Origin: an uncultured Bacilli bacterium
Lineage (GTDB): Bacteria; Bacillota_I; Bacilli_A; RF39; UBA660
Length of the DNA: 64,000 bases
NCBI GenBank assembly: GCA_934155645.1
Contig: CAKPHC010000006.1
Coordinates: 30,625-94,624, forward strand
Direction of reading: 5' to 3'
This document shows, piece by piece, positions 953 through 51,263 of the stretch (position 1 is its first letter; the number at the start of each line of letters is the position of its first letter). Both the position numbers and the translations under genes were made by a program. The notes beneath the pieces were generated by a model. It was not told the DNA's origin, did not search any database, and saw only the letters and a list, made by a program, of their open reading frames with translations.

Positions 953-2551
953 TTACTTGATAGTTAATCTTGTGATTCTAGCGTATCCGTCACCACTTCG
1001 ACCTGTTGTTGCTGTACCACCTAACGTAGTACTTGGAATACTTGAGTCACCTGCGGTTAATACTGTCTCAGTCAAATAGTATTGGCTTCCTAGTAAGTAA
1101 CCAGTTGGTTTGCTGCTTGATGAAGTTAAAACGTATCCGCTTCCTCCACCGCCGCCACGGTCATCATCACTGGAAGTATCAGGAACTGAACCTGAACCAC
1201 CGTACCAGCCACCACCGCCGGCTCCACCATAACCGAAACTAGATGTTCCATATCTATATCCAGCTCCACCATAACCGAACGAACCCGCAGTAGCAGTATA
1301 TCCAGATGTTGTAGTTCCAGCACCTCCGGCAGTTTGTGTACCACCTTGACCACATGCGGTTGTGCTACAACCTTGTCCTGAGTAAGTTTCGGTAGTAGTA
1401 CCACCGGTAGTTCCACCACCGGCTCCACCTTTTTTAGAACTTCCTCCTACTGAACCACCACCACCAGCAACAATTACTCTGGCATAAAGTGATTGAGAAC
1501 CAACTCTTATATCAGTAGCACCACCACCATAAATATTAGTTGTACAACCATTGGCTACTGTGCAACCTGACATACCGCCACCATTATATCCACTGTGGTT
1601 AGTACCATTTCCACCAACATATATATACAATACTTCACCTTGTTTTAAGAATATCTTACCAGAGGCATATCCACCTTTACCTGAATAAGTATTACTACTT
1701 CTATATCCACCTTCTGCTCCCCATACTTCTAATTGATAATATCCAGTAGTTGGAACATTAAATGTAGAATAACTACCATTGTAACTATAAGTATACATAT
1801 AACCCCAAGTTGCATAAAGAGTAACTGTTTTACCTGGAGACGTTAAATTCATTACAGATTCTTTATCTCTATATACTGGTGCACCCGTAGGTGTTGTAGC
1901 CCATCCTAGGAATTTATAACCACTTTTTGTGTAGGCGTTTGTTGTTAATGTGCAATTATAATTGAATCCACAGGTATTAGTCGATGTTGTACCACTACCA
2001 CCATTAGCATTATAACTTACTGTATAATAATGAACACCATTAGGTGTTGTTCCTGTATATTGAACCCAGTCAATACTTACTTTTAATTTCTTTACTCTTT
2101 GTAATGGGTCTGCTACTACATTCGGATTATATTTAGCAACTACAGTTAATGTTTTAGTTTCCCCTGCTGCTATAGTATCACCATTATTTATTCCTGATAC
2201 TGTATATACAATTGCATCAGTACCACTTGTTGTTATATCAATATTGCTTACCGCTCCTGTTAAAGTACCTTTATTTTGAATTGTCACTGTATAAGTCATT
2301 GAATCTCCTGGGTCAACTAAGCTAACATTAAACTTGGCAGTAGTTGCTGTATATGAAGGAGCTTCAATATTATAAGCACCTCCTACATTTGTACCATCGG
2401 AAATACCAGTAATTCTAATATCCCAAGTAGATGTGATATTAGCTTTACCATTTATTTTTAATTCTGACATCAAAATGGAATATCCTACTGACATAAAGAA
2501 TACTCCTAAACAAAGTGCAAGTGCAATAATTGTTTTTTTATTTCGCATCAT
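953..2551 (-). CDS. Secreted modular protein, family paralog P1: shared N-terminal module + Listeria-Bacteroides (InlB B-type) repeat + glycine-rich domain
   Basis: The N-terminus MMRNKKTIIALALCLGVFFMSVGYSILMSELKINGKANITSTWDI..DPGDSMTYTVTIQNKGTLTGAV aligns with the four other paralogs. YTVSYNANGGSG..YKFLGWATTP..VTLYATWG looks like a Listeria-Bacteroides repeat. TTGYYQLEVWGAEGG..LYIYVGGNG..GGGATDIRVG..VAGGGG looks like the bacterial glycine-rich domain signature. RBS AGGTGA. Confidence 0.8.
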   Translation of the reverse strand: MMRNKKTIIALALCLGVFFMSVGYSILMSELKINGKANITSTWDIRITGISDGTNVGGAYNIEAPSYTATTAKFNVSLVDPGDSMTYTVTIQNKGTLTGAVSNIDITTSGTDAIVYTVSGINNGDTIAAGETKTLTVVAKYNPNVVADPLQRVKKLKVSIDWVQYTGTTPNGVHYYTVSYNANGGSGTTSTNTCGFNYNCTLTTNAYTKSGYKFLGWATTPTGAPVYRDKESVMNLTSPGKTVTLYATWGYMYTYSYNGSYSTFNVPTTGYYQLEVWGAEGGYRSSNTYSGKGGYASGKIFLKQGEVLYIYVGGNGTNHSGYNGGGMSGCTVANGCTTNIYGGGATDIRVGSQSLYARVIVAGGGGSVGGSSKKGGAGGGTTGGTTTETYSGQGCSTTACGQGGTQTAGGAGTTTSGYTATAGSFGYGGAGYRYGTSSFGYGGAGGGGWYGGSGSVPDTSSDDDRGGGGGSGYVLTSSSSKPTGYLLGSQYYLTETVLTAGDSSIPSTTLGGTATTGRSGDGYARITRLTIK

Positions 2552-2725
2552 ACTATCACCTATTCTATATTCATTATAATGATATCATTTTTTTTGATTT
2601 GCAACAATAGTATTATTGTCTTTTTTTTACATTTTTATAAATATTTGTAAAACACCTAGACATATACAGTAGCAAAATTAGTTATTCATAATAAACTATA
2701 TTAGAAAAGAAAAGGAGGAATAAGT

Positions 2726-2890
2726 ATGTATTACTACGGTGGTGGCTCATGTGGTTGCCAAGGTGGAGGATACCAATATCCTTTCTATCCATATTATGGA
2801 TATGGAAATGGTAACACATCATCATATGCAATAATATTAGTACTATTTATTTTATTAGTTATCGTAATCGGTTCTAGATTTACAAGATAA
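2726..2890 (+). CDS. YjcZ-like small Gly/Tyr-rich peptide (54 aa), below the ORF-track size cutoff
   Basis: ATG at 2726 follows AAAGGAGGAA. Translation: MYYYGGGSCGCQGGGYQYPFYPYYGYGNGNTSSYAIILVLFILLVIVIGSRFTR. The Gly/Tyr-rich head plus hydrophobic tail resembles Bacillus YjcZ-family sporulation peptides. A hairpin AGATAAG..CTTATCT plus T-run follows. Confidence 0.55.
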   Translation: MYYYGGGSCGCQGGGYQYPFYPYYGYGNGNTSSYAIILVLFILLVIVIGSRFTR

Positions 2891-2978
2891 GGGTTCATCT
2901 CTTATCTTTTTTTGATTTGACATTTATTTATTTTTGTAGTATTATTATTCTCCGTGCATAAAAAAAGGGGGTAATAAT

Positions 2979-3476
2979 ATGTCAATTGATGAAAAAGATG
3001 AAATCCAATATAGAAAAGCACAAATAAAAATTGGTGCAGTTAATGCTACTATACCTAGTTTAATTGAATTAAACAATGAATTAATTCCAAGTGAAAGAAA
3101 GGCTTATACAATACTACTTGATTATCAAAATTTTGGTGATTATTATAAGTTTATAGTAGATATTAAAAGAACTTATGGATTCGATAATAATTCACTATTA
3201 AAAATTGTTTATAGTTTAAAAGATAAAAAAGCAGGTTTAAATTTATTAAAACAAGCTTGTGAATGCTATGCAGAAAATAGTGAAATGGATTATATATCTT
3301 TTACTAGTAGAAATGACGCTATTGTAAGTTTTAATATGATTGGTTCTAATAAAGTTGATTTAAACTTTGCAATTCATGATGAAGAAATAGTTGAAGAGTT
3401 AAAAGAACTTCAAAATAAATTCTATCGAAGTATTCCTGAACAAATCAAATTAAAAAAACTAGGCCATAATTGTTAA
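2979..3476 (+). CDS. Hypothetical protein (165 aa)
   Basis: ORF with RBS AAAGGGGG upstream; no motif recognised. Confidence 0.6.
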   Translation: MSIDEKDEIQYRKAQIKIGAVNATIPSLIELNNELIPSERKAYTILLDYQNFGDYYKFIVDIKRTYGFDNNSLLKIVYSLKDKKAGLNLLKQACECYAENSEMDYISFTSRNDAIVSFNMIGSNKVDLNFAIHDEEIVEELKELQNKFYRSIPEQIKLKKLGHNC

Positions 3477-3519
3477 ATCCGACAAATTATGATAGAATAA
3501 AAGTTGTTGAGGTGGTCTT

Positions 3520-4068
3520 ATGTTAAAAACTAAAGATATTTTAGATGAAAAAAATAAAATTTTAAGAACAGTAAGTAAAGAAGTAGTATTTCCTTTATCT
3601 GAAGAAGATTTAAAAACTATAGATGATATGATTGAATACTTAACTAATAGTCAAATAGAAGAATTAGCAGAAAAATATGATTTAAGACCAGGCATGGGAA
3701 TGGCTGCTGTACAATTAGGAATTCCTAAAAGATATTTAACTATCGTTCATGAAGTTGATGAAGGTAAATTTGATAATTACGTTATTATAAATCCTAAAAT
3801 TGTTAGTTCATCTTCTGAAAAAATATATGTAGAAGATGGCGAAGGTTGCTTAAGCATTAATCGTGAAACAGTAGGAATTGTTCCTAGATATGCTAGAGTT
3901 ACAGTTGAAGGATATGACACTAAAGGTAATAAAATTAGTATTAGAGCAAGAGAAGAACTTGCTATAGCTTTTCAACATGAAATAGATCATTTAAACGGTA
4001 TCTTATTTATTGACCATATCGATAAAAAAAATCCATTTAAAGATAAAGATAAATATAGAGCAATATAA
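3520..4068 (+). CDS. def: Peptide deformylase
   Basis: All three deformylase motifs are present: GMGMAAVQLG, EGCLS, HEIDHLNG. Confidence 0.95.
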   Translation: MLKTKDILDEKNKILRTVSKEVVFPLSEEDLKTIDDMIEYLTNSQIEELAEKYDLRPGMGMAAVQLGIPKRYLTIVHEVDEGKFDNYVIINPKIVSSSSEKIYVEDGEGCLSINRETVGIVPRYARVTVEGYDTKGNKISIRAREELAIAFQHEIDHLNGILFIDHIDKKNPFKDKDKYRAI

Positions 4069-4069
4069 A

Positions 4070-4100
4070 AGAGTTTTCAAAATTAGAAAACTCTTTTTTT
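4070..4100. terminator. Hairpin terminator between convergent def and methyltransferase genes
   Basis: AGAGTTTTC-aaaatta-GAAAACTCT followed by T6; a short A-run lies on the other side. Confidence 0.6.
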
Positions 4101-4701
4101 AATTCCTTTTACTAACAGTAATTCCATCCCCTACTTCGTAAAAGTCAGTATGAAATTCTGAATTATTTTTTAGAAATGTAATATATTCTTTAATTTTTCT
4201 AACTAGTCCTCTTAAGTTTCTAGTTTTAATTTCACTCTCATCTTTATTAACATATCCATGGAAGTTAATATTATCGGTAACTATATATCCTTCTTTTACT
4301 AAGTTTTTAGAGAATTTTTCAAAAAACGCCCTGTTCTTACCTTTTGCTGCATCTATAAAGATTAAATCGTATTGGTCTTTTAATTCAACTAGTTCCGCAT
4401 CATTATATATTAAAGTTATTCTATCTTCTAAATCAAATTTTTTTACGTTTTTTACTGCTTCTAAGTATCTCTCACGGTCACGTTCGATAGAAGTAATTTT
4501 AACGTTTGGACTTGATAATGCCATCATAATGGCAGAATATCCTATCGCGGTACCTACTTCTAGAACGTTTTTTATTTGATGTTTAATAATGAAAGTAGTT
4601 AAGAAATTAATTCCATCATCTAACATAATTGGAACATTATTCTCTTTAGCGTATTCTTTAATTATTTTTATTTCTTGATGATTTTCTACCACTCTAACCA
4701 A
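4099..4701 (-). CDS. trmR: Class I SAM-dependent O-methyltransferase (YrrM/TrmR-like)
   Basis: SAM motif I VLEVGTAIGYS and IFIDAAK. It sits directly downstream of mltG, as in B. subtilis yrrK-yrrL-yrrM. Confidence 0.6.
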   Translation of the reverse strand: MVRVVENHQEIKIIKEYAKENNVPIMLDDGINFLTTFIIKHQIKNVLEVGTAIGYSAIMMALSSPNVKITSIERDRERYLEAVKNVKKFDLEDRITLIYNDAELVELKDQYDLIFIDAAKGKNRAFFEKFSKNLVKEGYIVTDNINFHGYVNKDESEIKTRNLRGLVRKIKEYITFLKNNSEFHTDFYEVGDGITVSKRN

Positions 4702-6814: not shown

Positions 6815-7954
6815 TCAACCAATATATTGTGTTCCCATAAATAGTAGAAATCCTAGTAATATAATTAAGACAATCCAGCCATTAATCCTTTCAAATTTTG
6901 TACTTTTATACTTTACTCCTACTGCTACTGTTGCTAATGCTCCACCTACTAATCCACCTATATGAGCAAAATTATCTATTCCAGGAGTAATAAATCCAAT
7001 TAATAAGTTAAGTAAAATCAAAGGAATAATTTGACTTTTTAAGACGTTACCTAAGTAAACTCGGTAATGATATCCAAAATATAATAATGAACCCATTAGT
7101 CCAAATATTGCCCCACTAGCACCTATACTAGCCCCATCACTTAATAAAGCTGACAACATGCTTCCGGTTATTGCACTAATGAAATATATTATTAAGTATT
7201 TCCATTTTCCCATAAAGTTTTCTATTTGACTACCAATTACGTATAAAGAATAACAGTTAAGAATTAAGTGAACAAAGTTAGCGTGTAAGAAAGCTCCTGT
7301 AATTAATCTATAATATTCATTATATTTAAAAATAAACGGTCCATATACTGCAAAACTATTTATAGTATTATCATATTGATTAAATAAAATCATTGCTAAA
7401 TAAATAATTACATTAATTGCAACAAGTGATATAGTTATGATATTTTTCTTTGGTTTAAATATCTCTTCTATTTTTTGAGCATCTTCTTTGTTTTTATGAT
7501 TTATGTCATTAGTTATTTTTATAAATAATTGAAGTCCTTCCTCTGAAAATGTTAGCTTTTTATTTATATCAGGGAAGTATTGATATAGAAAATCATATTT
7601 ATTAATATCTTTTTCATCATATAAATATATACAATCTATATCATGCTCATCTTTTAATTCAACATTATCTCCTAAATCAGTAAAAATACTTAATGCGTTC
7701 ATTTTTATTGAAAAAGTTTTTTTCTTTATTTTTTTCAAAACATGTCTTGTTTTGTATAAATCAAAATCTAATTGTTCTTCATTGTGAATATGATTAGATA
7801 CAATACGAATGATTTTGTAATCACTTTCTAAGTTTTCTAACCAGATTTCGTCTTCTGCACCTTGTAAAATTATTGGATTATAATTTTTTTCTGTTATAAA
7901 GTAATGAAGCAGTTTCATAACTATTAAGTTTTTTCTATCCAGTGACTCGTCCAT
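6815..7954 (-). CDS. Rhomboid-family intramembrane serine protease with N-terminal cytoplasmic extension
   Basis: FLHANFVHLILN, GASGAIFGLMG (catalytic Ser) and AHIGGL (catalytic His) in a polytopic C-terminal half. Confidence 0.85.
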   Translation of the reverse strand: MDESLDRKNLIVMKLLHYFITEKNYNPIILQGAEDEIWLENLESDYKIIRIVSNHIHNEEQLDFDLYKTRHVLKKIKKKTFSIKMNALSIFTDLGDNVELKDEHDIDCIYLYDEKDINKYDFLYQYFPDINKKLTFSEEGLQLFIKITNDINHKNKEDAQKIEEIFKPKKNIITISLVAINVIIYLAMILFNQYDNTINSFAVYGPFIFKYNEYYRLITGAFLHANFVHLILNCYSLYVIGSQIENFMGKWKYLIIYFISAITGSMLSALLSDGASIGASGAIFGLMGSLLYFGYHYRVYLGNVLKSQIIPLILLNLLIGFITPGIDNFAHIGGLVGGALATVAVGVKYKSTKFERINGWIVLIILLGFLLFMGTQYIG

Positions 7955-8050: not shown

Positions 8051-9109
8051 TTAATTTTGTCTCATTTTTCTATATGCTACAGAGCCAAATACTAGTGTTA
8101 CTATAGATAAAGTTGCTATTACATATAACAGATTATCTCCTGTACTTGGATTTTTTTCGTTATTAGGATTTAGTATCTTTTCTAATTCTGTAAGGTCATC
8201 TTTATCTACTTTACCATCTTGATTAATATCTGCTAGTTTTAGTTCATCGTCTTTAAGAGTTCCTTCATCTTTTTCTAGATGATTTTTTAATTTTTCTAAA
8301 TCTTTTTCATCTACTTTACCATCTTGATTGATGTCACCTGTTTCATAAATTTCTTTATCAGATGATACTGGTAAATTTTTATATGAACCCCAACCTTCAA
8401 CATATCTAATCAAAATAATTAAGTCTTTGTTATCTATTTTACCATCTTCGTTTAAATCAGCATATTTTAAGCCTTCTTCACTAATTGCTGATTCATCACC
8501 TGCTAAGTAATCAGTAAGTGCATCAATGTCTTTTTGATTGATTTCTCCATCTAAATTAACATCTCCGTAGGCATATACTTTACCTTCAGTTATTAAAGGT
8601 AGGATTTCATAACCTTCCCAATTTAATAGATGACGTAATAAAATAATACGATCAACATTATTTACTTTTTGGTCATCATTTAAGTCAGCGTACTTTAATC
8701 CTTCTTCTGATATTGCATCTTTGTTACCGTTTAAATATTCAACATATAAAGCTAAGTCCTTATTATTAACTTCTCCATCAAGATTAACATCGCCATAAGC
8801 AATCGTTACTAACGCTGGATTTAATGGTAAAGTTTTATAGTCATCCCAATTTAATAAGTGACGTAATAAAATAATACGATCAACATTATTTACTTTTTGG
8901 TCATTATTTAAGTCTGCGTACTTTAATCCTTCTTCTGATATTGCATCTTTGTTACCATTTAAATATTCAACATATAAAGCTAAGTCCTTATTATTAACTT
9001 CTCCATCAAGGTTAACATCGCCACATTTTTTGGTACCAGTAGCATATACATTTGTTAACATTAAAAAACTAATTACAAATGTCATTAATATCAAAAATTT
9101 CTTTTTCAT
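8051..9109 (-). CDS. Surface protein built only of dockerin-like (EF-hand pair) modules, with signal peptide and sortase-type C-terminal sorting signal
   Basis: Start moved to MKKKFLILMTFVISFLMLTNVYA (AGGAGG RBS). There are four GD(V/I)N(L/Q)DG..N..D modules. The C-terminus NPSTGD + LLYVIATLSIVTLVFGSVA + YRKMRQN resembles an LPXTG-class sorting signal. Confidence 0.75.
   Translation of the reverse strand: MKKKFLILMTFVISFLMLTNVYATGTKKCGDVNLDGEVNNKDLALYVEYLNGNKDAISEEGLKYADLNNDQKVNNVDRIILLRHLLNWDDYKTLPLNPALVTIAYGDVNLDGEVNNKDLALYVEYLNGNKDAISEEGLKYADLNDDQKVNNVDRIILLRHLLNWEGYEILPLITEGKVYAYGDVNLDGEINQKDIDALTDYLAGDESAISEEGLKYADLNEDGKIDNKDLIILIRYVEGWGSYKNLPVSSDKEIYETGDINQDGKVDEKDLEKLKNHLEKDEGTLKDDELKLADINQDGKVDKDDLTELEKILNPNNEKNPSTGDNLLYVIATLSIVTLVFGSVAYRKMRQN
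8616..9023 (-). repeat. In-frame tandem duplication, period 228 bp (76 codons), inside the dockerin gene
   Basis: 8616-8795 and 8844-9023 are nearly identical at the DNA level (a few substitutions seen by eye) and encode AYGDVNLDGEVNNKDLALYVEYLNGNKDAISEEGLKYADLN(N/D)DQKVNNVDRIILLRHLLNW. Confidence 0.85.
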
Positions 9110-9228
9110 ATACTCTATCCTCCTATTCTTACTTATATTATAACGATAAGTCTGTAAATTAATCAATGTTAAACAATATGTTTGTCATTTCATTTACATT
9201 TATTTTACATTTTCAAAGAAAAAAACCA

Positions 9229-24367: not shown

Positions 24368-24388
24368 AAAAAAAGAGATTTAATCTCT
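24368..24388 (-). terminator. Terminator of paralog P2 (overlaps its stop)
   Basis: Minus strand: AGAGAT-taa-ATCTCT + T7. Confidence 0.5.
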
Positions 24389-25823
24389 AATTTGTTTCTA
24401 TTACATATGGGTCTGTTACTGTACCAGTTCCACTTTTAACTGTTACTGTTGATTTTAAATTGATTACAGGTCTAACACCAGTGTAGGTGTTGCCAATGTA
24501 TTCCAACGACAAACCAAGTGAATTGCCGACGATATAACCATGGAGGACTGAAACAACAGTGGCTGAACTTGAACCTGAACTTGAACTTGAACCTGGACCT
24601 GAACCTGAACTATGAAGCGTAGATTTGGCAGGTGACATCGTCCAAAATGTTTCTCCCGTTATTATATAACAACCCGTACTAGCTGTTGCATAATTCACTT
24701 CACCAGCACTTATCAACCCAATCGGATATGTTAAGGCTTTATTACCTTTGGTTGATGTTAATAATGTATACAAATCGTTATTTTGTGGGCATTTAAACTG
24801 TGAAGTTTTAGAGCCGTACTCAGTGACAGCCGTTCCTATTCCTGTACCTCTTTTTAAACTTCTATCTCCACAAAATCCTGAGTCTGCTATTAGTGATGAA
24901 TAACTTATTAAATTATTTTGATACCATGTATCTAAAGTTGTCTTGATTGTACTTGAATTTGTATTTGCATGGGTTGCTGCATATGTTGTTGAACCAGCAG
25001 TTCCATACATATATCCTGCATATGCATTGTCTCCGTTCACACTATTAAATGCACTATTACCGATTGAATCTTGCTTTATTAATCTGACACTTTCATCTTC
25101 ATTTATTCTTACTACTCTCCATATAAATCCCGCAAAAGACACATAGTTGTTATCTACCGTCCCACTAAAATAATAAGTCGTTTTACCTTCTTCTGTATTT
25201 TTATTTGTGTAATACAATCCTTTTCCTGTTCTATAATCAGTAGTATCTGCTTGGGCCGTGTTCTTCTTTAAAATTAAACTGTTTAAACGTTTTACTTCGA
25301 TACTTGGTGTTTCGCTTGGTATTGTTTGACCTGTATCTTGTACTACTTCTATTGATAAATTAATACTTCCTATACTATCCTCTGGTAGTGATGTAATATT
25401 TGAATCTAGTTGTACTGTCACTGTAAATGTCTTTTCAGTAGCTTTTGCTAATTTATATCCTTTAGTTAACCCAGAAACATCATAAGTTACTTTTGGTGAA
25501 CTGTTACTAGTTATTTTTATATCATTTATGATTGCATTTACTGTTCCACCATTTTTTATAACTATAGTGTATACCATTTTATCTCCTGGTAATTTTAACC
25601 CTGTTCTAAAATTAGCTGTTGTTCCTGTTACGCTTGGAGTTTCAATATTATATGCTTCTCCTGTTGCAGATGATGTTATACTTGAGAAAAATATATTCCA
25701 ATTAGATGTTATGTTACCTTTAGAAGATATTCTTAACTTAGTTGCAAAGGCTGCATATCCAACCGCTAGTAATAATACTGCAATACATAATACCATACAT
25801 ATTATTGTTTTCTTTCTATTCAT
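24387..25823 (-). CDS. Secreted modular protein, family paralog P2
   Basis: The true start is MNRKKTIICMVL at 25823 (GAGGT RBS), the same start as the identical tandem copy; the 45-codon upstream extension in the ORF track is intergenic. Shared N-module plus shared C-terminal domain (WRVVRINEDES, GYMYGTAGSTTYAATHANTNSSTIK, GFCGDRS, FWTMSP, VRPVINLKST). Confidence 0.85.
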   Translation of the reverse strand: MNRKKTIICMVLCIAVLLLAVGYAAFATKLRISSKGNITSNWNIFFSSITSSATGEAYNIETPSVTGTTANFRTGLKLPGDKMVYTIVIKNGGTVNAIINDIKITSNSSPKVTYDVSGLTKGYKLAKATEKTFTVTVQLDSNITSLPEDSIGSINLSIEVVQDTGQTIPSETPSIEVKRLNSLILKKNTAQADTTDYRTGKGLYYTNKNTEEGKTTYYFSGTVDNNYVSFAGFIWRVVRINEDESVRLIKQDSIGNSAFNSVNGDNAYAGYMYGTAGSTTYAATHANTNSSTIKTTLDTWYQNNLISYSSLIADSGFCGDRSLKRGTGIGTAVTEYGSKTSQFKCPQNNDLYTLLTSTKGNKALTYPIGLISAGEVNYATASTGCYIITGETFWTMSPAKSTLHSSGSGPGSSSSSGSSSATVVSVLHGYIVGNSLGLSLEYIGNTYTGVRPVINLKSTVTVKSGTGTVTDPYVIETN

Positions 25824-25899
25824 ATCACATACCTCGATTATTATTAATATATATTTATTATATAATACCTTGATGGTATTTTCAATTAAAAAGAAGAAC
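25251..25899 (-). repeat. 649-bp near-identical block, copy A (P2 codons 1-191 + 5' UTR + promoter)
   Basis: Matches 26960-27608 at a constant offset of 1709. The stretches I compared base by base (about 25251-25560) and the upstream segment showed two mismatches (25263 C vs T, 25872 A vs G). In between, identity rests on the identical sense and antisense translations. Confidence 0.9.
25857..25885 (-). promoter_or_regulatory. Sigma-A-type promoter of P2 with an inverted repeat in the spacer
   Basis: Minus strand: TTGAAA-ATACCATCAAGGTATTA-TATAAT (17-nt spacer). ATACC-N5-GGTAT is a palindrome. Confidence 0.55.
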
Positions 25900-25968
25900 A
25901 TAATTTGTTTTGTTAGACACATTATTAACTTGACGTTAAACTTTTTAGTATATGACAAATTATTAGAT

Positions 25969-26065: not shown

Positions 26066-27532
26066 TCAGTCTGTAAGTATTATGTATGGGTCGCTTGAAG
26101 TGCCGGTTCCACCTTTAACTGTTACTGTCGCTTTTAAATTAATTACAGGACGAGTTGCTCCCGAAAGATTAGTTTCGAATGGGTTAAAGTATACAGGGGC
26201 ACCATTAGCAGTGCGATACATTCTCCATATAGTGCTGCCACTAGATTGGCTTGAAGTATTCGGTGTCATTGTCAGAAAATAATAGTTACTTGTCAGTTCA
26301 GAGTTATCTGTCAAATAATAATCTTCACTAATTTTACCTAATACTGCCCCAGCATAAACTACTTCATCTGCTGTTATTAATCCTATTGGATATGTTAAGG
26401 CTTTATTTCCCTTTGTCGCTGTTTCTGTTGTATATAAATCATTACTTTGCGGACATGCATATTGGGGCTTATTACTGTTAGTGCTGAGTCTTTTCCAAGC
26501 CCCATAGTGAGTAAGAGCTGTTCCTATCCCCGTACCATCTGCTAGACTTCTATCGCCACAGAAACCTGTATCTGCTAAATATGATGAATATTGGCTCAGA
26601 TTACTACTATACCAAGTGTCAACGGCAGTTTTAATTGTACTTGAATTTGTATTAGCATGTGTTGCTGCATATGTTGTTGAACCTGCTGTTCCATACATAT
26701 ATCCTACATAAGATGCATCGGTATGATTAGTATTAAATGCACTATTACCTATTGAATCTTGTTTTATTAACCTAATGCTTTCATCCTCATTTATTCTTAC
26801 TACTCTCCATATAAAGCCTGCGAAAGATACATAGTTGTTATTTACTACTCCTCTAAAATAATATGTTGTTTTGCCTTCTTCTGTATTTTTATTTGTGTAA
26901 TATAATCCTTTACCATTTGTATCGCTACTTACTTTAGAAAAGTCTATACTAGCATCACTTTGGGCCGTGTTTTTCTTTAAAATTAAACTGTTTAAACGTT
27001 TTACTTCGATACTTGGTGTTTCGCTTGGTATTGTTTGACCTGTATCTTGTACTACTTCTATTGATAAATTAATACTTCCTATACTATCCTCTGGTAGTGA
27101 TGTAATATTTGAATCTAGTTGTACTGTCACTGTAAATGTCTTTTCAGTAGCTTTTGCTAATTTATATCCTTTAGTTAACCCAGAAACATCATAAGTTACT
27201 TTTGGTGAACTGTTACTAGTTATTTTTATATCATTTATGATTGCATTTACTGTTCCACCATTTTTTATAACTATAGTGTATACCATTTTATCTCCTGGTA
27301 ATTTTAACCCTGTTCTAAAATTAGCTGTTGTTCCTGTTACGCTTGGAGTTTCAATATTATATGCTTCTCCTGTTGCAGATGATGTTATACTTGAGAAAAA
27401 TATATTCCAATTAGATGTTATGTTACCTTTAGAAGATATTCTTAACTTAGTTGCAAAGGCTGCATATCCAACCGCTAGTAATAATACTGCAATACATAAT
27501 ACCATACATATTATTGTTTTCTTTCTATTCAT
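26066..27532 (-). CDS. Secreted modular protein, family paralog P3
   Basis: The first 191 residues are identical to P2; the C-terminal domain is homologous but diverged (WRVVRINEDES, GYMYGTAGSTTYAATHANTNSSTIK, GFCGDRS, TRPVINLKAT). Confidence 0.9.
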   Translation of the reverse strand: MNRKKTIICMVLCIAVLLLAVGYAAFATKLRISSKGNITSNWNIFFSSITSSATGEAYNIETPSVTGTTANFRTGLKLPGDKMVYTIVIKNGGTVNAIINDIKITSNSSPKVTYDVSGLTKGYKLAKATEKTFTVTVQLDSNITSLPEDSIGSINLSIEVVQDTGQTIPSETPSIEVKRLNSLILKKNTAQSDASIDFSKVSSDTNGKGLYYTNKNTEEGKTTYYFRGVVNNNYVSFAGFIWRVVRINEDESIRLIKQDSIGNSAFNTNHTDASYVGYMYGTAGSTTYAATHANTNSSTIKTAVDTWYSSNLSQYSSYLADTGFCGDRSLADGTGIGTALTHYGAWKRLSTNSNKPQYACPQSNDLYTTETATKGNKALTYPIGLITADEVVYAGAVLGKISEDYYLTDNSELTSNYYFLTMTPNTSSQSSGSTIWRMYRTANGAPVYFNPFETNLSGATRPVINLKATVTVKGGTGTSSDPYIILTD

Positions 27533-27608
27533 ATCACATACCTCGATTATTATTAATATATATTTATTATATAATACCTTGGTGGTATTTTCAATTAAAA
27601 AGAAGAAC
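26960..27608 (-). repeat. 649-bp near-identical block, copy B (P3 codons 1-191 + 5' UTR + promoter)
   Basis: See copy A. Confidence 0.9.
27566..27594 (-). promoter_or_regulatory. Sigma-A-type promoter of P3
   Basis: TTGAAA-ATACCACCAAGGTATTA-TATAAT, the duplicate of the P2 promoter with one substitution in the palindrome loop. Confidence 0.55.
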
Positions 27609-27612
27609 CGAA

Positions 27613-28233
27613 TTATTTTTTCGATTCTTCTTGTAAAATCTTTGAATATTTACAGCCACAATAGTTTTGTCTATATAAATTATATTCCTTAGATAATTCT
27701 ATACTTCTTTTATAACCATTTTTCTTTTTAAAGTCTGCGTACAAATAATTTATTCCATATTTTTTTGCTAAAGCTTCACCTATTTCATTTAATACTTTAG
27801 CATTTTTATAAGGACTTATTGATAAAGTCGTTGTAAAGTAATCATACCCTTTTTCTTTTGCTAACTTAGCAGTCTCTTCCAATCGCATATTATAACAAAT
27901 ATGACAACGAGAACCACCTTCTTTTTCTTGTTCTTTACCTCTAATTAATTCTTCATAACGATTATTATCGTAAACCCCTTCAATAAAATCCACTTTATTC
28001 TTTAAAGGCATTTCACTAATAAGTCTTTTTTGTTCTTCACACCGTTTTGTAAACTCCTCTTTAGGAGATATGTTTGGATTATAATATAGAATTGTTATTT
28101 TAAAATAATTAGACAAGTACTCTAAAACATAACTAGAACATGGTGCACAACAACTATGTAGTAATAAACTAGGAGTTTTTTTACTTTCTATAATTTTGTC
28201 TATCTCTTTCTCCAAGTTTTCTTGAAAATTCAT
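27613..28233 (-). CDS. queH: Epoxyqueuosine reductase QueH (DUF208)
   Basis: LLLHSCCAPCS, CHICY and NYCGC cysteine motifs; good RBS AAGGAAGGA. Confidence 0.85.
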   Translation of the reverse strand: MNFQENLEKEIDKIIESKKTPSLLLHSCCAPCSSYVLEYLSNYFKITILYYNPNISPKEEFTKRCEEQKRLISEMPLKNKVDFIEGVYDNNRYEELIRGKEQEKEGGSRCHICYNMRLEETAKLAKEKGYDYFTTTLSISPYKNAKVLNEIGEALAKKYGINYLYADFKKKNGYKRSIELSKEYNLYRQNYCGCKYSKILQEESKK

Positions 28234-42812: not shown

Positions 42813-43262
42813 ATGAAAGAATTTTGTGATTCATTAGATTATGATAATAATTATTATTTTTATCATGAAACTAGTGATAATAAAGCAAAAAGCATTTGTG
42901 AACAGGGTTTATTATTATCAGGATACAATATTGTAAAAGCAAGAAATTTATTGTTAACAACTGCCCTACCTTTACCTAAAGAAATTGCTTGTGATGAGGT
43001 AGCTTTCAGTGATTTCTTAGAAGATGAAATTAGTCCTTCAGATATTAGACCAATTACTGAAATGGTTATAATAGCAGTTCCTAAAGAAGATATTGATTAT
43101 GTCGTTATAAAAAATGAGAATAATTACTATCACAGTGATGTTGATTCTCCTAACTATATGGTTCAACCTCAATACATTTTAGGGTACTTTGATTTGGAAA
43201 CAAAGAACTTTACTCTTAATCCAGAATCTTATTATTCAGGAGAATTTAGTTACAAATTATAA
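42813..43262 (+). CDS. Hypothetical protein (149 aa)
   Basis: AGGAG RBS; no motif recognised. Confidence 0.55.
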   Translation: MKEFCDSLDYDNNYYFYHETSDNKAKSICEQGLLLSGYNIVKARNLLLTTALPLPKEIACDEVAFSDFLEDEISPSDIRPITEMVIIAVPKEDIDYVVIKNENNYYHSDVDSPNYMVQPQYILGYFDLETKNFTLNPESYYSGEFSYKL

Positions 43263-43263
43263 A

Positions 43264-43293
43264 AACCAAACTTATTCGTTTGGTTCTTTTTTT
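43264..43293. terminator. Bidirectional hairpin between convergent genes
   Basis: AACCAAAC-ttattc-GTTTGGTT + T-run. Confidence 0.65.
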
Positions 43294-43307: not shown

Positions 43308-44747
43308 TTAACTAGTTTTAATTACATATGGATTAGAACTAGTACCATCTCCACCATCAACGATTTCTGTAGTGGATTTAAGATTGATGACTGGGCGCAC
43401 ACCAATAAATTGACTGTCGACCTCTTCGTGATCAAGTAAACTACCATCGGTGCCTACGCCCCACGCGTTAGGCACATAACCGTCATAGAGATTAGGTGTC
43501 ATCGTCCAAAAAGCTACTCCTTCTAGATAAAGGTAATAATTTTCATTCGATTCAAAATCAACACCACCAGCATATGCCACTTCATCTGCTGATATTAAGC
43601 CGATTGGATATGTTAATGCTTTGTTTCCCTTTGTACTTGTTGTAATTGTATATAAGTCATTGGTTTGTGAGCATTTGAATTGGGGTAGATTATTGCTTAT
43701 TAATCTATTATATGCACCATATTTAGTCTTCGTTTTTCCTATTCCTGTTTCAGTATTTAGACTTCTGTCACCACAGAAACCGGAATCCACTATTACTGGT
43801 GAATAATTAATTAAATTATTTTGATACCATGTATCTAACAATGTTTTAATTGTACTTGAATTTATATTTGCATGCGTTGCTGCATATGTTGTTGAGCCTG
43901 CCGTTCCGTACATATATCCTACATATGCATTATCACTATAATTAGTATTAAATACACTATTACCTATTGAATCTTGTTTAATGAGTCTTACTGTACCATC
44001 TTCGTTTATTCTTACTATTCTCCAAGTATTGCTTGCAAATGATACATAGTTGTTTTCTACCGCTCCTCTAAAGTAATATGTTACTTTATTATCTTCAGTA
44101 TTTGTGCTTGTATAATATAATCCTTTTCCATTTGTGTCGCTACTTATTTGTGAGAAATCTATATTTGTATCTGGTTGTGCCGTATTGTCTTTTCGTATTT
44201 GTTTAGCTAATAGAATTGGTCCTTCTACAACAACATCTTCACCAGTAATAGTTTGCCCTGTATCTTGAACATAATTTATATCTACCGTCAAATTATCATT
44301 TAAAATTCCAGGTTGTTCTGTGACACTGTCATCAAAGGAGATTATTACGTTAAAAGTAGTACTTGCTTTTCCTGCTAATCGGTCGCCTTTTTTAATACCT
44401 GTTATTTCAAATTTAATGGCATTGTTTGATGTTTTGCTTGCCTTAATATCACTTATTATTGCATTTATTGTTCCTTTGTTTTCTACAGTTATTTCATACG
44501 TGATAGAATCGCCTGGAGCATGTACATCTAAATCAAATGTAGCACTTGTTCCACTTGCTGTTGGTGCTGAATTAATAGTTACACCACTTGTTTTAGATAC
44601 TTCTTCTATTTTGGTAAATACTACCTCCCAAGTAGAAGAGATGCTTACCATACCATTTATTTTAAGATTAGCTGAGAACGCTGCATACCCTACTGCCATA
44701 AATAGTATTGCTATACACATTACAATTATTATTTTCTTTTTCTTCAT
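43308..44747 (-). CDS. Secreted modular protein, family paralog P4
   Basis: MKKKKIIIVMCIAILFMAVGYAAFSANLKINGMVSISSTWEV..APGDSITYEITVENKGTINAI..VQDTGQ plus the shared C-terminal domain (WRIVRINEDGT, GYMYGTAGSTTYAATHANINSSTIK, GFCGDRS, FWTMTP, VRPVINLKST). Confidence 0.9.
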   Translation of the reverse strand: MKKKKIIIVMCIAILFMAVGYAAFSANLKINGMVSISSTWEVVFTKIEEVSKTSGVTINSAPTASGTSATFDLDVHAPGDSITYEITVENKGTINAIISDIKASKTSNNAIKFEITGIKKGDRLAGKASTTFNVIISFDDSVTEQPGILNDNLTVDINYVQDTGQTITGEDVVVEGPILLAKQIRKDNTAQPDTNIDFSQISSDTNGKGLYYTSTNTEDNKVTYYFRGAVENNYVSFASNTWRIVRINEDGTVRLIKQDSIGNSVFNTNYSDNAYVGYMYGTAGSTTYAATHANINSSTIKTLLDTWYQNNLINYSPVIVDSGFCGDRSLNTETGIGKTKTKYGAYNRLISNNLPQFKCSQTNDLYTITTSTKGNKALTYPIGLISADEVAYAGGVDFESNENYYLYLEGVAFWTMTPNLYDGYVPNAWGVGTDGSLLDHEEVDSQFIGVRPVINLKSTTEIVDGGDGTSSNPYVIKTS

Positions 44748-44868
44748 CTATATCACCCGAATTTTATTATCTATTAATAGTATATCAATTATTGTAATTC
44801 TTTTACAAGATTATTCTTGTATTTTTAGAAATTCTTTTACAATATATTGTCATTTTTATTATAAAACA

Positions 44869-46501: not shown

Positions 46502-47170
46502 TTATTTATTTTTTTCTTTCATCAATCTTTTAGCTTGATTTTTTCTTCTTCTTTCTATTAATTCTACTTTTTTCAATGTAATATTTGCTGCTCTTCTGAA
46601 TTCAGAATATGGCTTACTTCCATTTAATTCTTTCATCTTACGATGCTTTGCAATTTTCTTTAATTGTTCTAAATCATTTTCTTCAAAATATCCTGGATAT
46701 CTTGTTAAAAGTAAGTTATTAGTAATTAAGAAATTAGTATTACTTTTGTATTTATCAAATGCTGTACCATCTTTGTAAGCTTCATTTATTTTATCTGGAT
46801 TCATTATTCTTTGTGCTATAACTTCAGCATAGCTTTCATCCCATCTATATCCAGTATTAACATTACTTACATAATATGAGTAACTTATTTCTTCTCCTAA
46901 TCTTGTAGGTCCATATTTTTTAATTGAAACTATTTGAGTAAGAATATCTATTGCACCCATACCTACTTCTGGGTCTTCACAATATTTATTGCAAAGTTTA
47001 TATATTTTATCAAACTTTTCACGGATTAAGAACATGTATGAAGGGTCAGTTGCTCTTTCTACTAAAGTTTCAATCATTAATCTTTCTTCATCTTCAGTAT
47101 ATACTGCTCTATCAAGTATTACTAATCTTTCACCATGTATCTCTTCTTGCATTTTTTCTATATTTCTCAT
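46502..47170 (-). CDS. Hypothetical protein (222 aa) translationally coupled to lon
   Basis: Its ATG shares one nucleotide with the lon stop (TAATG); basic C-terminal tail; no motif recognised. Confidence 0.6.
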   Translation of the reverse strand: MRNIEKMQEEIHGERLVILDRAVYTEDEERLMIETLVERATDPSYMFLIREKFDKIYKLCNKYCEDPEVGMGAIDILTQIVSIKKYGPTRLGEEISYSYYVSNVNTGYRWDESYAEVIAQRIMNPDKINEAYKDGTAFDKYKSNTNFLITNNLLLTRYPGYFEENDLEQLKKIAKHRKMKELNGSKPYSEFRRAANITLKKVELIERRRKNQAKRLMKEKNK

Positions 47171-49485: not shown

Positions 49486-49577
49486 AAAATCCCTCCTTGA
49501 AACATGTTTTTTATTATAACCAGTTAGTACTAAAAAAGCAACAAATATGACAAATTTTTACATGAGAAAAATTGGTT

Positions 49578-49602
49578 AAAAAAAGGACTTGTTTGAAGTC
49601 CT
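49578..49602 (-). terminator. Terminator of paralog P5
   Basis: Minus strand: AGGACTT-caaac-AAGTCCT + T7. Confidence 0.65.
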
Positions 49603-49607
49603 ATATA

Positions 49608-51263
49608 TTAATTTGTTTTTATAACATATGGATTTGATTCAGTGCCACCTCCGCTTATAACTTCTACAGTGGATTTTAGATTGATGACAGGACGCACAGC
49701 TGCTTGGCTGCTATACACATCGCCGTAACGAAGTCTACCGTCAGGAGATACTCCCCCCACCATAGCGTAAGTTTCATTTGTCCCGTTTGTCCCGCATGGC
49801 GTCATTGTCCAGAATAAATCACCGTTCGCTAAAAATGAATTTTCACCTGAATCACCCATATAAATTACTTCATCGGCTGTTACTAATCCTATTGGATACA
49901 TTAAGGCTTTATTTCCATTATTACTAGACGTCGTTGTATATAAATCATTACTTTGTGGGCACTTAAATTGTGGAATTCTTGTAGTCCCAACATATAATCT
50001 TTTAGCTACACCATAATCAGTACTTGTAGTTCCTATTCCAGTTCCACTTGATAAACTTCTATCTCCACAAAATCCTGCATCAGCGATAAGTGCTGAATAA
50101 TTAGTTAAATTATTTTGATACCAATTATCTAAAAATACTTTTATTGTACTTGAATTTGTATTAGCATGTGTTTCTGCATATGTTGTTGAACCTGGGGTTC
50201 CGTACATATATCCTACATATGCTGCATCATTATTTTTATCATTAAACACACTATCACCTATTGAATCTTGTTTGATTATTCTTACACTGCCATCTTCATT
50301 TATTCTTACTATTCGCCATAATTCCTCTTTAGAGCCATAAGTTGCATAAGCATTCGTCCATATTCCTCTAAAATCACTACTTCTACATGCTGCTTCGTCC
50401 ATTCCCACTATCATACCTAAACCATTTGATGTTGCATCGCATACTTTAGTTGATGTGCATTGAGCTTGAGTTGAATTCGAGCGAAGTCTTTCATTATCAT
50501 ACAAATTAACTTTTTTACCATTGTATGTACAGGTACTTACTTCTTCATTCCTTAATTTAACATAATTATTTTGAACATCTCCTCTAAAGTAGTATGTTCT
50601 CTTATTATCTTCTGTATTTGTACTTGTATAATATAATCCTTTTCCATTTGTATCACTACTTGCTTGTGAAAAATCTATATTTGTATCTGGTTGAGCTTTG
50701 TTATTTTTTAGTATTTTGCTTACTAATGTAGTGTCTTCGATAATCACATCTTCACTAGGAATAGTTTGTCCTACATCTTGCACACAATCTATATCTACTG
50801 TTAATATTTTTGATGTTTCTTCTGGTTGACTGGTGAAGTTTTCATCATATTCTATTTTTATAGTTATTGTTTTTGAGTCCCCTATCGCTAGTTTATCTCC
50901 TTTTTTTATTCCATCAATCGAAAATACTATAGCATTAGAACCTTCAGCTTTTGCATTTACATTTTCTATTATTGCATTAACATTACCGTCATTTGCAAGT
51001 GTTAAAGTATATGTAATTGAGTCACCTGGTAATTCTAAGTTAGCATCCATGGTTGCAGTTGTACCGCTTGCTGTTGGGTCAGTATTATTGCTTGCTCCAG
51101 TAGTTTTTTCTCCCGTTGTTATGCTTGTAAAATGTACTAACCATCTACCACTTATACCTACTGAACCATTTATTCTTAAATTAGTTGCAAAAATAGCATA
51201 TCCTACTGCCATAAATACAGCTGTTATACATAATGCGATTGATATTATTTTTTTATTTCTCAT
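49608..51263 (-). CDS. Secreted modular protein, family paralog P5 (with a Cys-containing insertion)
   Basis: MRNKKIISIALCITAVFMAVGYAIFATNLRINGSVGISGRWLV..LPGDSITYTLTLANDGNVNAI..VQDVGQ plus the shared C-terminal domain. About 74 extra residues lie between NNYV and WRIVRINEDGS. Confidence 0.9.
   Translation of the reverse strand: MRNKKIISIALCITAVFMAVGYAIFATNLRINGSVGISGRWLVHFTSITTGEKTTGASNNTDPTASGTTATMDANLELPGDSITYTLTLANDGNVNAIIENVNAKAEGSNAIVFSIDGIKKGDKLAIGDSKTITIKIEYDENFTSQPEETSKILTVDIDCVQDVGQTIPSEDVIIEDTTLVSKILKNNKAQPDTNIDFSQASSDTNGKGLYYTSTNTEDNKRTYYFRGDVQNNYVKLRNEEVSTCTYNGKKVNLYDNERLRSNSTQAQCTSTKVCDATSNGLGMIVGMDEAACRSSDFRGIWTNAYATYGSKEELWRIVRINEDGSVRIIKQDSIGDSVFNDKNNDAAYVGYMYGTPGSTTYAETHANTNSSTIKVFLDNWYQNNLTNYSALIADAGFCGDRSLSSGTGIGTTSTDYGVAKRLYVGTTRIPQFKCPQSNDLYTTTSSNNGNKALMYPIGLVTADEVIYMGDSGENSFLANGDLFWTMTPCGTNGTNETYAMVGGVSPDGRLRYGDVYSSQAAVRPVINLKSTVEVISGGGTESNPYVIKTN

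Follow-up and report, generated by a model that had tools for sequence, protein, structure and literature searches.

Five dispersed paralogs with a constant N-terminal unit and interchangeable heads as candidate subunits of a signal peptidase-dependent fibre system in an uncultured gut Bacilli bacterium

Five paralogous genes in the window

A stretch of 64,000 nucleotides from an uncultured Bacilli bacterium (GenBank assembly GCA_934155645.1, contig CAKPHC010000006.1, positions 30,625 to 94,624 of the forward strand), henceforth called the window, carries five minus-strand paralogs, P1 to P5, which belong to a very large, unnamed Firmicutes family with a constant N-terminal unit of three parts ahead of C-terminal domains (heads) that vary between members. 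The G+C content of the window is 27%, and the genome records closest to it are metagenome-assembled genomes (MAGs) named 'uncultured Bacilli bacterium' from Hadza human and rabbit gut. The five open reading frames (ORFs), which had been described as paralogs in an initial annotation of this DNA, are present where that annotation had placed them and translate as described:

953..2551, minus strand: P1, 532 amino acids (aa); signal peptide in residues 1-25, ending ...SVGYS↓IL (the arrow marks the junction here and below), and N-terminal module (N-module) to about residue 170
1811..2026, minus strand: Flg_new repeat of P1 (residues 176-247)
968..1747, minus strand: ALK/LTK-type glycine-rich domain of P1 (residues 269-528)
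24387..25823, minus strand: P2, 478 aa; signal peptide, N-module and divergent DUF6273-like C-domain
26066..27532, minus strand: P3, 488 aa; tandem neighbour of P2, with the same architecture
43308..44747, minus strand: P4, 479 aa; reference member, modelled with AlphaFold2
49608..51263, minus strand: P5, 551 aa; architecture as in P2-P4, plus a C-domain insertion of ~72 residues with four Cys

The mechanically called ORF of P2 begins further upstream, with a TTG at 25958; the homologous start is an ATG at 25823, which has a ribosome-binding site and is also the start that the initial annotation had given. A hidden Markov model (HMM) of the N-module, covering the first 185 residues of P1-P5, matched only these five in the six-frame translation of the window (E 1e-87 to 1e-94). 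Pairwise identity of the N-modules is 33-52%, with the exception of P2 and P3, which are 100% identical in this part, and the shared C-domains of P2-P5 are 62-69% identical. The landmark motifs listed before were recovered with small deviations, P2 reading RTGKGLYYT and P3 reading YFLTMTP. The C-terminus of P1 differs from that of P2-P5, as had been noticed, and its head matched two Pfam models above their cut-offs, i.e., Flg_new (36.4 bits, cut-off 27; E=5.8e-9) and ALK_LTK_GRD (139.2 bits, cut-off 24.5; E=3e-40). The 90%-identity cluster of P1 has 37 members, and all 15 members listed are 532 aa long.

Signal peptide, N-terminal strand and sandwich

In each paralog, a Lys-rich N-terminus and a hydrophobic stretch are followed by a stretch of 18 residues, an immunoglobulin (Ig)-like sandwich of ~125 residues, a short linker, and the head. 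The hydrophobic stretch ends in the family motif M-A-V-G-Y-A↓A-F. In P4, whose numbering is used below, the three constant parts are:

44682..44747, minus strand: signal peptide, residues 1-22, ending M-A-V-G-Y-A↓A-F
44628..44681, minus strand: conserved amphipathic stretch that opens the predicted mature protein, residues 23-40 (AFSANLKINGMVSISSTW), a candidate donor strand or juxtamembrane segment
44253..44627, minus strand: Ig-like beta-sandwich body of the N-module, residues 41-165, eight strands

The 18-residue stretch has alternating hydrophobic residues in the pattern A-F-x-x-x-L-x-I-x-G-x-A-x-I-x-S-x-W. The junction was located with a motif that fixes position -2 as Y/F/W and position -1 as A/S, and 285 of 292 family sequences matched it. 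In these 285 sequences, position -3 was G, A, S, or T without exception and position -2 was Y or F, and the last charged residue lay 17-19 residues before the junction. Across 438 members, M17, G20, Y21, L28, I30, G32, I36, and W40 are conserved at 90-99% (L28 99%, I30 96%, G32 97%, W40 94%). These positions, which are among the most conserved, put the conservation of the signal peptide end and of the first 18 mature residues at or above that of the domain core, whose PGD...N.G hairpin reaches a comparable level. Expressed in mature numbering, the N-terminal pattern F2, L6, I8, G10, A12, and I14 is conserved at 74-99%.

AlphaFold2 gave a mean predicted local distance difference test score (pLDDT) of 82.5 for full-length P4 and of 87.8 for the isolated mature N-module. 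The sandwich was confident in both monomer models, and residues 23-40 were left unplaced as coil, with a pLDDT of <50 for residues 27-37 of the full-length model; in the domain-only model, the first 19 mature residues were coil (block pLDDT 51 and 74). Where a second copy of the sandwich follows the first (P0408, P0409, P0454), HMM positions 1-43 are missing from it, which sets the signal peptide and the strand apart as a unit of their own that is confined to the N-terminus. Two loci (L073, L099) encode the signal and the strand only, followed directly by a DUF6273-like head, and CBM_2/Big_2 proteins encoded in the gene clusters of relatives match HMM positions 2-49 only. The unit of signal and strand is thus portable.

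Two other readings of the N-terminus were tried and rejected. For a lipoprotein, the conserved Cys of the signal peptide comes too early and the residue before it is M or L, so that it does not form a lipobox. The type IV pilin reading, which was prompted by weak matches to the Sulfolobus AAP pilin and UpsA, fails on the prepilin-peptidase site: the N-termini of P1-P5 consist of KK and then the hydrophobic stretch, with no Gly before it and no Glu at +5, and are not matched by the N_methyl model.

Signal peptidase and DUF5305 genes beside the module in relatives

A degenerate DNA pattern for MAVGYAAF yielded 117 metagenomic loci, of which 57 carry N-module ORFs and the remaining 60 are chance matches that served as controls. 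Many of the 57 loci contain tandem arrays of two to six stand-alone N-module genes (160-220 aa), e.g., six genes in L049 and four each in L081, L070, and L132; arrays were also seen in L043, L129, L118, and L107. The array contigs are low in G+C, at least some of them come from the human gut, and genes for a peptidase and a DUF5305 protein usually follow where the flank exists.

Directly downstream of the N-module genes and on the same strand lies a gene for a protein of 380-390 residues with 7-9 predicted membrane segments and a C-terminal peptidase domain. TIGR02228 (archaeal/SipW-type signal peptidase I) matched all five peptidases tested with 89-104 bits (cut-off 51.85), well above the score of the bacterial LepB-type model. 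The linked peptidases are fusions, in which ~250 N-terminal residues with 7-9 hydrophobic segments precede the TIGR02228 domain with its SGSMSPTF motif:

L132:12234-13376, L101:7581-8747, L056:315-1487, L110:5382-6521 and L069:3903-5075: fused peptidase genes

The next gene after the peptidase encodes a DUF5305 protein (81.6 and 54.8 bits; cut-off 29), and tblastn found DUF5305 in 17 loci. The peptidase was present in 14 of the 57 N-module loci and in none of the 60 control loci. When only stand-alone N-module loci with at least 1.5 kb of downstream sequence were counted, the TIGR02228-type peptidase and DUF5305 followed immediately in 10 of 15, against 0 of 60 in the controls. This gene context in relatives strongly supports the inference, made in the initial annotation from the junction, that P1-P5 carry SipW-cognate signal peptides. 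Tblastn searches with B. subtilis SipW and SipS and S. aureus SrtA were used for leads only; the SipW matches were confirmed by Pfam/NCBIfam, and the SipS and SrtA queries returned no match.

At least six groups can be told apart among the linked peptidases, none of them more than ~66% identical to the L132 or L101 query; their loci have 25-31% G+C. The linkage of peptidase, DUF5305, and N-module genes is itself shown in at least six related lineages. The cluster was also found at L009, in a rabbit-gut 'uncultured Bacilli' MAG, and at L137-L139, in 'Bacilli bacterium' GCA_910578855, where it comprises two stand-alone subunits, the peptidase, and DUF5305, lies beside ftsA and ftsZ, and has N-module proteins with LRR_5 heads on its flanks. 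The N-modules of P1-P5 are 26-43% identical to the peptidase-linked subunits (BLASTP E 1e-9 to 1e-38).

Size and architecture of the family

P4 has more than 5,386 homologs in a 90%-identity cluster database, nearly all of them from metagenome assemblies, and the N-module profile matched 11,215 clusters at 50% identity (E≤1e-3), or 5,863 at E≤1e-10. The sampled family copies are mostly gut-metagenomic, and the sources that name any member call it 'hypothetical protein'. The 150 best hits, proteins of 161 to about 1,080 residues, all carry the module at their extreme N-terminus. Among 145 representatives checked, 26 are stand-alone modules of fewer than 250 residues (most 161-220 residues), and none has an LPXTG motif or a C-terminal anchor. 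The heads of 102 multi-domain representatives include DUF6273 (20), Flg_new (8), ALK_LTK_GRD (3), DUF285 (3), and BspA-type LRR_5 (2), as well as single cases of PT-HINT, Laminin_G_3, F5/8 type C, PA14, and CBM_X2. The architecture that had been proposed for the window, i.e., a constant module with interchangeable C-terminal domains, thus recurs across thousands of proteins. In a lineage close to that of the window (L142:7324-11425), a stand-alone N-module gene (169 aa) adjoins a head-bearing member of 630 aa, and another member is split into two ORFs of 284 and 173 aa, probably a frameshifted pseudogene.

The C-terminal heads

The shared head of P2-P5 is represented by the following parts of P4:

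43311..44180, minus strand: C-domain, residues 190-479, a divergent DUF6273 domain with an enlarged C-type-lectin-like fold
43398..43577, minus strand: hypervariable part of the head, residues 391-450, between FWTMTP and VRPVINLK

Two Cys are invariant in the C-domain (C325 and C359 in P4). PF19789 (DUF6273) matched none of P2-P5 at E≤0.1, and it matched 25 of 70 close homologs (best E 4.2e-6) and 20 of the 102 multi-domain representatives (best E 3e-15). The top fold match of the P4 model in the PDB was the immunoglobulin A (IgA) peptidase of Thomasclavelia ramosa (9QA6; E=1e-4 over 316 columns), with modest TM-scores. The N-terminal domain of 9QA6, 291 residues long, is an enlarged C-type-lectin-like DUF6273 domain that is dispensable for IgA cleavage; it is of the same size as the C-domain of P2-P5 (~290 aa), whereas P2-P5 lack a PF19789 match and have the two invariant Cys. 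In gut phages, DUF6273 heads are receptor-binding domains targeted by diversity-generating retroelements (DGRs), as in the 'tentaclins'.

Within residues 391-450 of P4, column entropy rises to 2.6 bits and the paralogs differ by indels. DUF6273-like heads also occur on other N-termini (L006-L008, L010). The N-termini of L006-L008 looked camelysin-like by eye, but the TasA-family HMM scored only 1-3.5 bits and no such relationship is claimed. In another Firmicute (L015:2574-3644, also L016 and L017), a protein of 346-357 aa combines a type IV prepilin N-terminus (KRGFTLVELI, N_methyl) with a DUF6273-like head (C-domain HMM match, E=2e-10), and a DUF5305 gene lies at the edge of this locus.

Head replacement and copy number

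P2 and P3 share a duplicated block:

25264..25911, minus strand: P2 copy
26973..27621, minus strand: P3 copy

The block comprises ~88 nt of promoter and 5' untranslated region (one mismatch), followed by the first 560 coding nt, which are 100% identical. Past +560, at the boundary between module and linker, identity drops sharply to roughly 35-90% per 60-nt block. An alignment of 24828-25911 with 26516-27621 places the breakpoint at codon ~187. The pattern suggests that only the 5' half of the gene underwent a recent gene conversion or duplication.

Head replacement was also seen between strains. The conspecific contig L018 has the gene order of the window, and the proteins flanking the paralogs are 97-100% identical. 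Its P5 ortholog is 99.3% identical at the protein level, and its P4 ortholog (L018:10001-11434, compared with 43308-44747) 80%. Along the P4 pair, the promoter, the signal peptide, and the first ~60 codons differ by at most one mismatch per 60 nt, the rest of the N-module has ~90% and the head 50-80% DNA identity, and an indel of ~240 bp follows the stop codon. Given the stable gene order and the divergent P4 head, these loci are therefore positional orthologs whose heads were replaced by recombination. Heads in this family are diversified by recombination that spares the promoter and the N-module and replaces the 3' half.

A further paralog, P0066, was placed directly on a 557-kb contig of the same species, and P0038 and P0051 were assigned to that contig, the loci retrieved for both being related Hadza contigs; together with P1-P5, at least eight copies are therefore counted for the contig. 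A second member of 548 aa directly adjoins P0051.

Profile and fold comparison of the N-module

The initial annotation had likened the N-module to TasA and camelysin. No Pfam or NCBIfam model scored above threshold on the N-modules of P1-P5. PF12389 (Peptidase_M73) matched P1 with 16.6 bits (E=0.007; cut-off 22.5) over residues 73-128 only and none of P2-P5 at E≤0.1; it reached E≤0.1 in 10 of 70 close homologs (best E 0.004) and in one of 102 multi-domain representatives (2e-4). Neither NF046066 (TasA) nor the SipW-substrate models TIGR04088, TIGR04089, and TIGR04090 matched P1-P5 at E≤0.1. Among 75 N-modules, the TasA model matched three (best 0.0015) and TIGR04089 and TIGR04090 two each, all of them far below threshold.

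More members were matched by models of other Ig-like domains. Choice-of-anchor D was found in 57 of 75 members (best 3.9e-9) and the DUF11 repeat in 47 of 75; DUF7507/CLIPPER_2 matched 19 of 102 representatives (best 7.7e-8), with P0408 above the cut-off of 27 (32.7 bits) and P4 and P5 of the window below it (14.3 and 17.9 bits). HYDIN/VesB-type Ig domains and CARDB were also recurrent sub-threshold matches. The PGD...N.G hairpin is common to the N-module, DUF11, DUF7507, CARDB, choice-of-anchor D, and TasA.

For profile-profile comparison, the TasA query was verified (residues 28-261 identical to PDB 8AUR), and gathered TasA/CalY homologs were combined into an alignment of 38 sequences. The N-module aligned with TasA/CalY in hhalign at 88-90% probability over 80 columns, with the YA↓AF and WA↓AF junctions in register, and at 79% over 32 columns after removal of the signal peptide; reversed or shuffled controls gave at most 0.3%. 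The aligned part consists of the junction and one hairpin, and this hairpin is also common to DUF11 and CARDB. Judged from these alignments, the similarity between N-module and TasA is real but local, and any kinship would lie at the level of the superfamily.

TasA structures 5OF1 and 8AUR were considered in the fold comparison, and TasA chains are present in the PDB sequence set. The Foldseek top 50 for the N-module model held GAE/adaptin ear, TRAP, MSP, VP26, and PapD-type Ig folds, i.e., generic Ig-like sandwiches. Against viral structures, Foldseek returned only weak matches, to VP26-type proteins of white spot syndrome virus (WSSV) and to one phage DUF6273 protein. When P4 and two N-module profiles were searched against PDB sequences, only coiled-coil peptides and a T-cell receptor chain came up, which were rejected as chance matches.

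Internal cross-links of the sandwich were considered as well. A CLIPPER-type isopeptide bond, a BsaA-type Asn-Glu-Lys lock, and a Thr-Gln ester were rejected, as no Lys or His is conserved; D80 is conserved at 95%, position 46 in the first strand is N in 32% and K in 25%, and an Asn of the last strand is conserved at 51%.

Comparison with published fibre and adhesin systems

Donor-strand fibre (bundling-pilus) loci of the TasA superfamily have been described from archaea and Bacillota for AbpX of P. abyssi and its homologs (bioRxiv 10.64898/2026.01.04.697558). Such a locus encodes a dedicated signal peptidase I with ~10 transmembrane segments, a DUF5305 accessory, minor subunits, and tip proteins, and the AbpX donor strand, which is unstructured in monomer predictions, buries W2, L6, L8, A10, and I12 (bioRxiv 10.64898/2026.01.04.697558). 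By this published description, the loci of the relatives resemble AbpX loci in their multi-copy small beta-sandwich subunits, TIGR02228 peptidase, DUF5305 gene, and subunits with extra domains, and the strand of the family is likewise aromatic at mature position 2, hydrophobic at positions 6 and 8, and unplaced in monomer models. The family differs from AbpX in that it lacks the acidic, low-isoelectric-point composition (acidic residues 4-13%) and in that its body looks like an Ig/DUF7507-type sandwich and not like the TasA jelly roll; unlike in AbpX loci, the members in this genome are head-bearing, dispersed, and not beside a peptidase.

TasA, CalY, and BsaA build SipW-dependent fibres in the biofilm matrix of Bacillus and Clostridium. 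TasA matures at WA↓AF, its residues 28-38 are the donor strand, and TapA shares this donor strand; BsaA of C. perfringens has TasA-like assembly plus an isopeptide lock. The aromatic-A↓A-F junction, the PGD...N.G hairpin, and, in relatives, the dedicated SipW-type peptidase are shared between the family and TasA/CalY/BsaA. A further likeness to TasA is that the TasA donor strand occupies the first ~11 mature residues and recurs on an accessory protein, TapA. The mature family module (~145 aa) is shorter than mature TasA (234 aa) and lacks the helical insertions and the C-terminal part; large C-terminal heads are found in the family only, and the Asn-Glu-Lys triad of BsaA is not conserved.

Under the name 'CLIPPER', DUF11 and DUF7507 have been described as stalk domains that occur in fibrillar adhesins and contain an intramolecular isopeptide bond (PMC12617251). 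CLIPPER and choice-of-anchor D domains gave the best profile matches, covering most of the sandwich, and the arrangement of a stalk with an adhesive head is similar. The triad Lys is not conserved in the family, and a C-terminal sorting signal is lacking. The module of the family is a single copy at the extreme N-terminus and not one of several internal tandem repeats, it has an additional conserved strand at its N-terminal end, and it is associated with a dedicated peptidase.

Tip adhesins of chaperone-usher and type IV pili are functional analogs, in which a pilin-type module is joined to a lectin-like head that varies between paralogs and strains. The family has no usher, no chaperone, and no prepilin-peptidase motif, and its domain order is the reverse of that of FimH. 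Separately, the lineage of the window encodes giant proteins (829-1051 aa) with a type IV prepilin N-terminus and Flg_new repeats, as well as a T2SSE ATPase (L143:145-5889; L019:18598-21437; L145:1-523), and the lineage therefore has type IV pilus or pseudopilus machinery. Secretion of BsaA in C. perfringens has been reported to depend on type IV pilus-type machinery.

Proposed mechanism and alternatives

On balance, P1-P5 are probably exported fibre or adhesin subunits of a TasA/AbpX-like system with a dedicated signal peptidase, and we favour, with moderate confidence, a function of the constant unit (specialised signal peptide, amphipathic strand, and Ig-like sandwich) as substrate and assembly module. 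The proteins would be exported by Sec, as suggested by the n-h-c layout of the signal. A polytopic SipW/archaeal-type signal peptidase with its DUF5305 accessory would then cut at G-Y-A↓A-F, a step that we infer for this genome from its relatives. The strand thus freed (A-F-x-x-x-L-x-I-x-G-x-A-x-I) may pair with the sandwich of a neighbouring subunit and so build a surface fibre or oligomer. On this scaffold, the C-terminal heads (enlarged C-type-lectin-like DUF6273 in P2-P5, Flg_new and the glycine-rich domain in P1) could act as interchangeable ligand-binding adhesin domains, judging from their fold and domain company; they are diversified by the recombination described above, which keeps the promoter and N-module and swaps the 3' half.

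Parallels to the published systems and the tandem arrays of minimal subunits make a peptidase-dependent fibre system the best-supported mechanism. By analogy with those systems, N-module proteins may form fibres, and the head-bearing paralogs would be their adhesin subunits. What is new compared with TasA/AbpX-type systems is the Ig/DUF7507-like body, the massive expansion in uncultured gut Bacilli, and the dispersed paralogs that exchange heads. As a tentative extension, which we regard as possible but doubtful in its full breadth, low-GC gut Firmicutes would share a widespread unannotated fibre system, in which a core locus with the major subunits, the polytopic SipW-type peptidase, and DUF5305 supplies a donor-strand polymer and scattered paralogs plug different lectin-like heads into it. 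The heads would be exchanged by recombination between paralogs and strains, and small-genome uncultured Bacilli of the gut would thereby have a cassette-like means of varying their adhesins or antigens.

A number of findings weigh against the fibre-subunit interpretation. In the window, no SipW-type peptidase, DUF5305 gene, or stand-alone subunit was found; the peptidase and DUF5305 were also not found in ~330 kb of the same lineage, in a sampling that was centred entirely on head-bearing genes, and a peptidase was nearby in 0 of 22 metagenomic loci with head-bearing genes. The N-module model had no Foldseek match in the PDB at E≤1e-3, with TasA, AbpA, and thread pilin missing from the top 50, so that the resemblance to the TasA beta-sandwich expected in the initial annotation was not borne out by the fold, and HMMER searches with the family profiles matched no chain among PDB sequences. 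The conserved Lys-Asp/Glu-Asn triad of a BsaA- or CLIPPER-type isopeptide bond is missing, as is the acidic residue at donor-strand position 4 of AbpX. The sandwich is predicted to be complete and also occurs as an internal tandem domain without the strand, and an open acceptor groove is therefore not established. Lastly, the N-terminal features also fit an uncleaved signal-anchor and juxtamembrane segment.

That last point is the core of the main rival, which we consider rather unlikely: P1-P5 would be N-terminally anchored monomeric adhesins with an uncleaved signal-anchor, a short Ig stalk of the DUF11/DUF7507 'CLIPPER' type, and a lectin-like head facing outward, and the GYAAF...L.I.G stretch would, with the same low likelihood, be the junction of membrane and ectodomain. 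The order of stalk first and head last with no C-terminal anchor in the 145 representatives is the orientation of N-terminal anchoring, AlphaFold2 puts residues 4-27 of P4 in a single helix, 17-19 residues separate the last charge from the junction, the closest profile families are stalk domains of fibrillar adhesins, WSSV VP26-type proteins (N-terminal transmembrane helix and sandwich) are among the fold matches, and the proteins with strand and head only fit equally well as anchor and head. The small residues at -3 and -1, however, follow the rule of signal peptidase I (position -3 in 285 of 285 sequences), and the tight linkage to a dedicated signal peptidase and an accessory gene favours cleavage. 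Arrays of stand-alone 165-aa proteins would make little sense as stalks that bear nothing, and a single Ig domain is too short for a Gram-positive wall, for which genes are present (mltG, uppP, uppS, and spoIID in the window; murG and murB in the same lineage).

Cleavage by a specialised or general signal peptidase without polymerisation would give ordinary secreted or wall-associated lectin-like proteins, a reading that we regard as distinctly improbable, in which the N-module has no role other than in folding, spacing, or wall binding and the conserved stretch behind the junction, no more probably, serves recognition by the peptidase. It would account for the complete sandwich and for heads that are typical binding modules, and it agrees with the lack of a structural match to known donor-strand pilins and with head-bearing genes that are dispersed and monocistronic with no assembly genes nearby. 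It sits poorly with the strict alternating hydrophobic conservation that continues for 18 residues past the cleavage site, beyond what a peptidase needs, with the accessory proteins of unrelated body that carry the same strand, and with tandem arrays of minimal subunits in an AbpX-like locus, which are typical of polymer systems.

True membership in TasA/CalY/camelysin (Peptidase_M73), as the initial annotation had inferred, is very improbable: the weak PF12389 matches (P1 and 10 of 70 homologs) and the hhalign probabilities of 79-90% over 32-80 columns speak for it, but every match to the TasA/camelysin models is below its curated cut-off, the aligned part is confined to the signal peptide and one hairpin, TasA is missing from the Foldseek top 50, and the module is shorter and lacks the helical insertions of TasA. 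DGR targets or phage-derived receptor-binding proteins, a reading raised because DUF6273 heads are common DGR targets, as in the phage 'tentaclins', and one that would fit the hypervariable segment at the C-terminal end of the head (the usual place of a variable region) and the phage DUF6273 protein among the fold matches, are barely credible given that no reverse transcriptase or phage family was found by Pfam in the window ORFs of at least 90 aa that were scanned (a template repeat was not searched for), that the variation consists of indels and whole-domain replacement and not of fixed-length adenine-specific substitutions, and that the genes are positional orthologs in a core genome context.

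If P1-P5 are indeed subunits of a SipW-dependent fibre system, donor-strand fibres of this kind would extend from biofilm models and archaea to abundant uncultured Bacilli of the human gut, the display of adhesins without sortase signals in these bacteria would be explained, and a modular scaffold with naturally interchangeable heads would be at hand. The exchange of heads among strains of one species suggests that hosts, phages, or antibodies exert selection on these loci, and the genes are therefore candidate determinants of colonisation at the strain level. The poorly understood DUF6273 domain, a lectin-like fold that a gut IgA protease and phage receptor-binding proteins also carry, gains a tractable context for ligand finding.

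Expression signals, neighbouring genes and other observations

The following promoter-like and terminator-like sites were located around the paralogs:

25857..25885, minus strand: promoter-like site of P2, TTGAAA-17-TATAAT, 11/12 matches
27566..27594, minus strand: promoter-like site of P3, TTGAAA-17-TATAAT, 11/12 matches
51293..51321, minus strand: promoter-like site of P5, TTGAAA-17-TATAAT, 11/12 matches
44761..44808, minus strand: weaker promoter-like sites of P4, TTGTAA-18-TATACT with TG, and TTGATA-16-TAAAAT
43261..43288, bidirectional: terminator-like hairpin of P4, from the terminator scan
49584..49602, minus strand: terminator-like hairpin of P5, from the terminator scan

An own promoter and terminator had been claimed for each of P2-P5. 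For the promoters, this holds for P2, P3, and P5, and P4 has weaker sites only; for the terminators, it holds for P4 and P5 by the scan and for P2 by a short A/T-rich hairpin with a T-run seen by eye, and not for P3, where no convincing terminator was found. Nor was a convincing terminator found for P1. The P1 promoter is atypical, in agreement with the earlier description: the upstream region (2552-2680) contains a TATAAT box with the nearest TTGCAA 20 nt upstream and two A8 runs nearby.

As described before, the paralogs sit among housekeeping genes, the neighbours being def, mltG/yceG, ruvX, dnaE, ftsK, divIVA, sepF, queH, and a gene for a ClpX-like AAA protein, and further ldh, uppP, lon, rseP, cdsA, uppS, glyS, and two genes of class-I aminoacyl-tRNA synthetases. 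The window encodes no sortase or S26 signal peptidase, and no C-terminal LPXTG motif with a hydrophobic tail was found in P1-P5, which agrees with the absence of an anchor motif, sipW, and sortase noted at the outset. A rhomboid-family intramembrane protease of 379 aa (6815-7954, minus strand) and RseP are the only membrane proteases among the window ORFs scanned.

A protein of 371 aa encoded at 8051-9166 (minus strand) contains four type I dockerin repeats (Pfam E=3.8e-46), and a cohesin and cadherin-like protein is encoded elsewhere, on the conspecific 557-kb contig (L144:17125-18669); the two suggest a cohesin-dockerin surface assembly in this small-genome gut bacterium. The two class-I aminoacyl-tRNA synthetase genes (55104-57521 and 57844-60306, minus strand) are adjacent paralogs of 805 and 820 aa, and both products match tRNA-synt_1, Anticodon_1, and the LeuRS editing domain.

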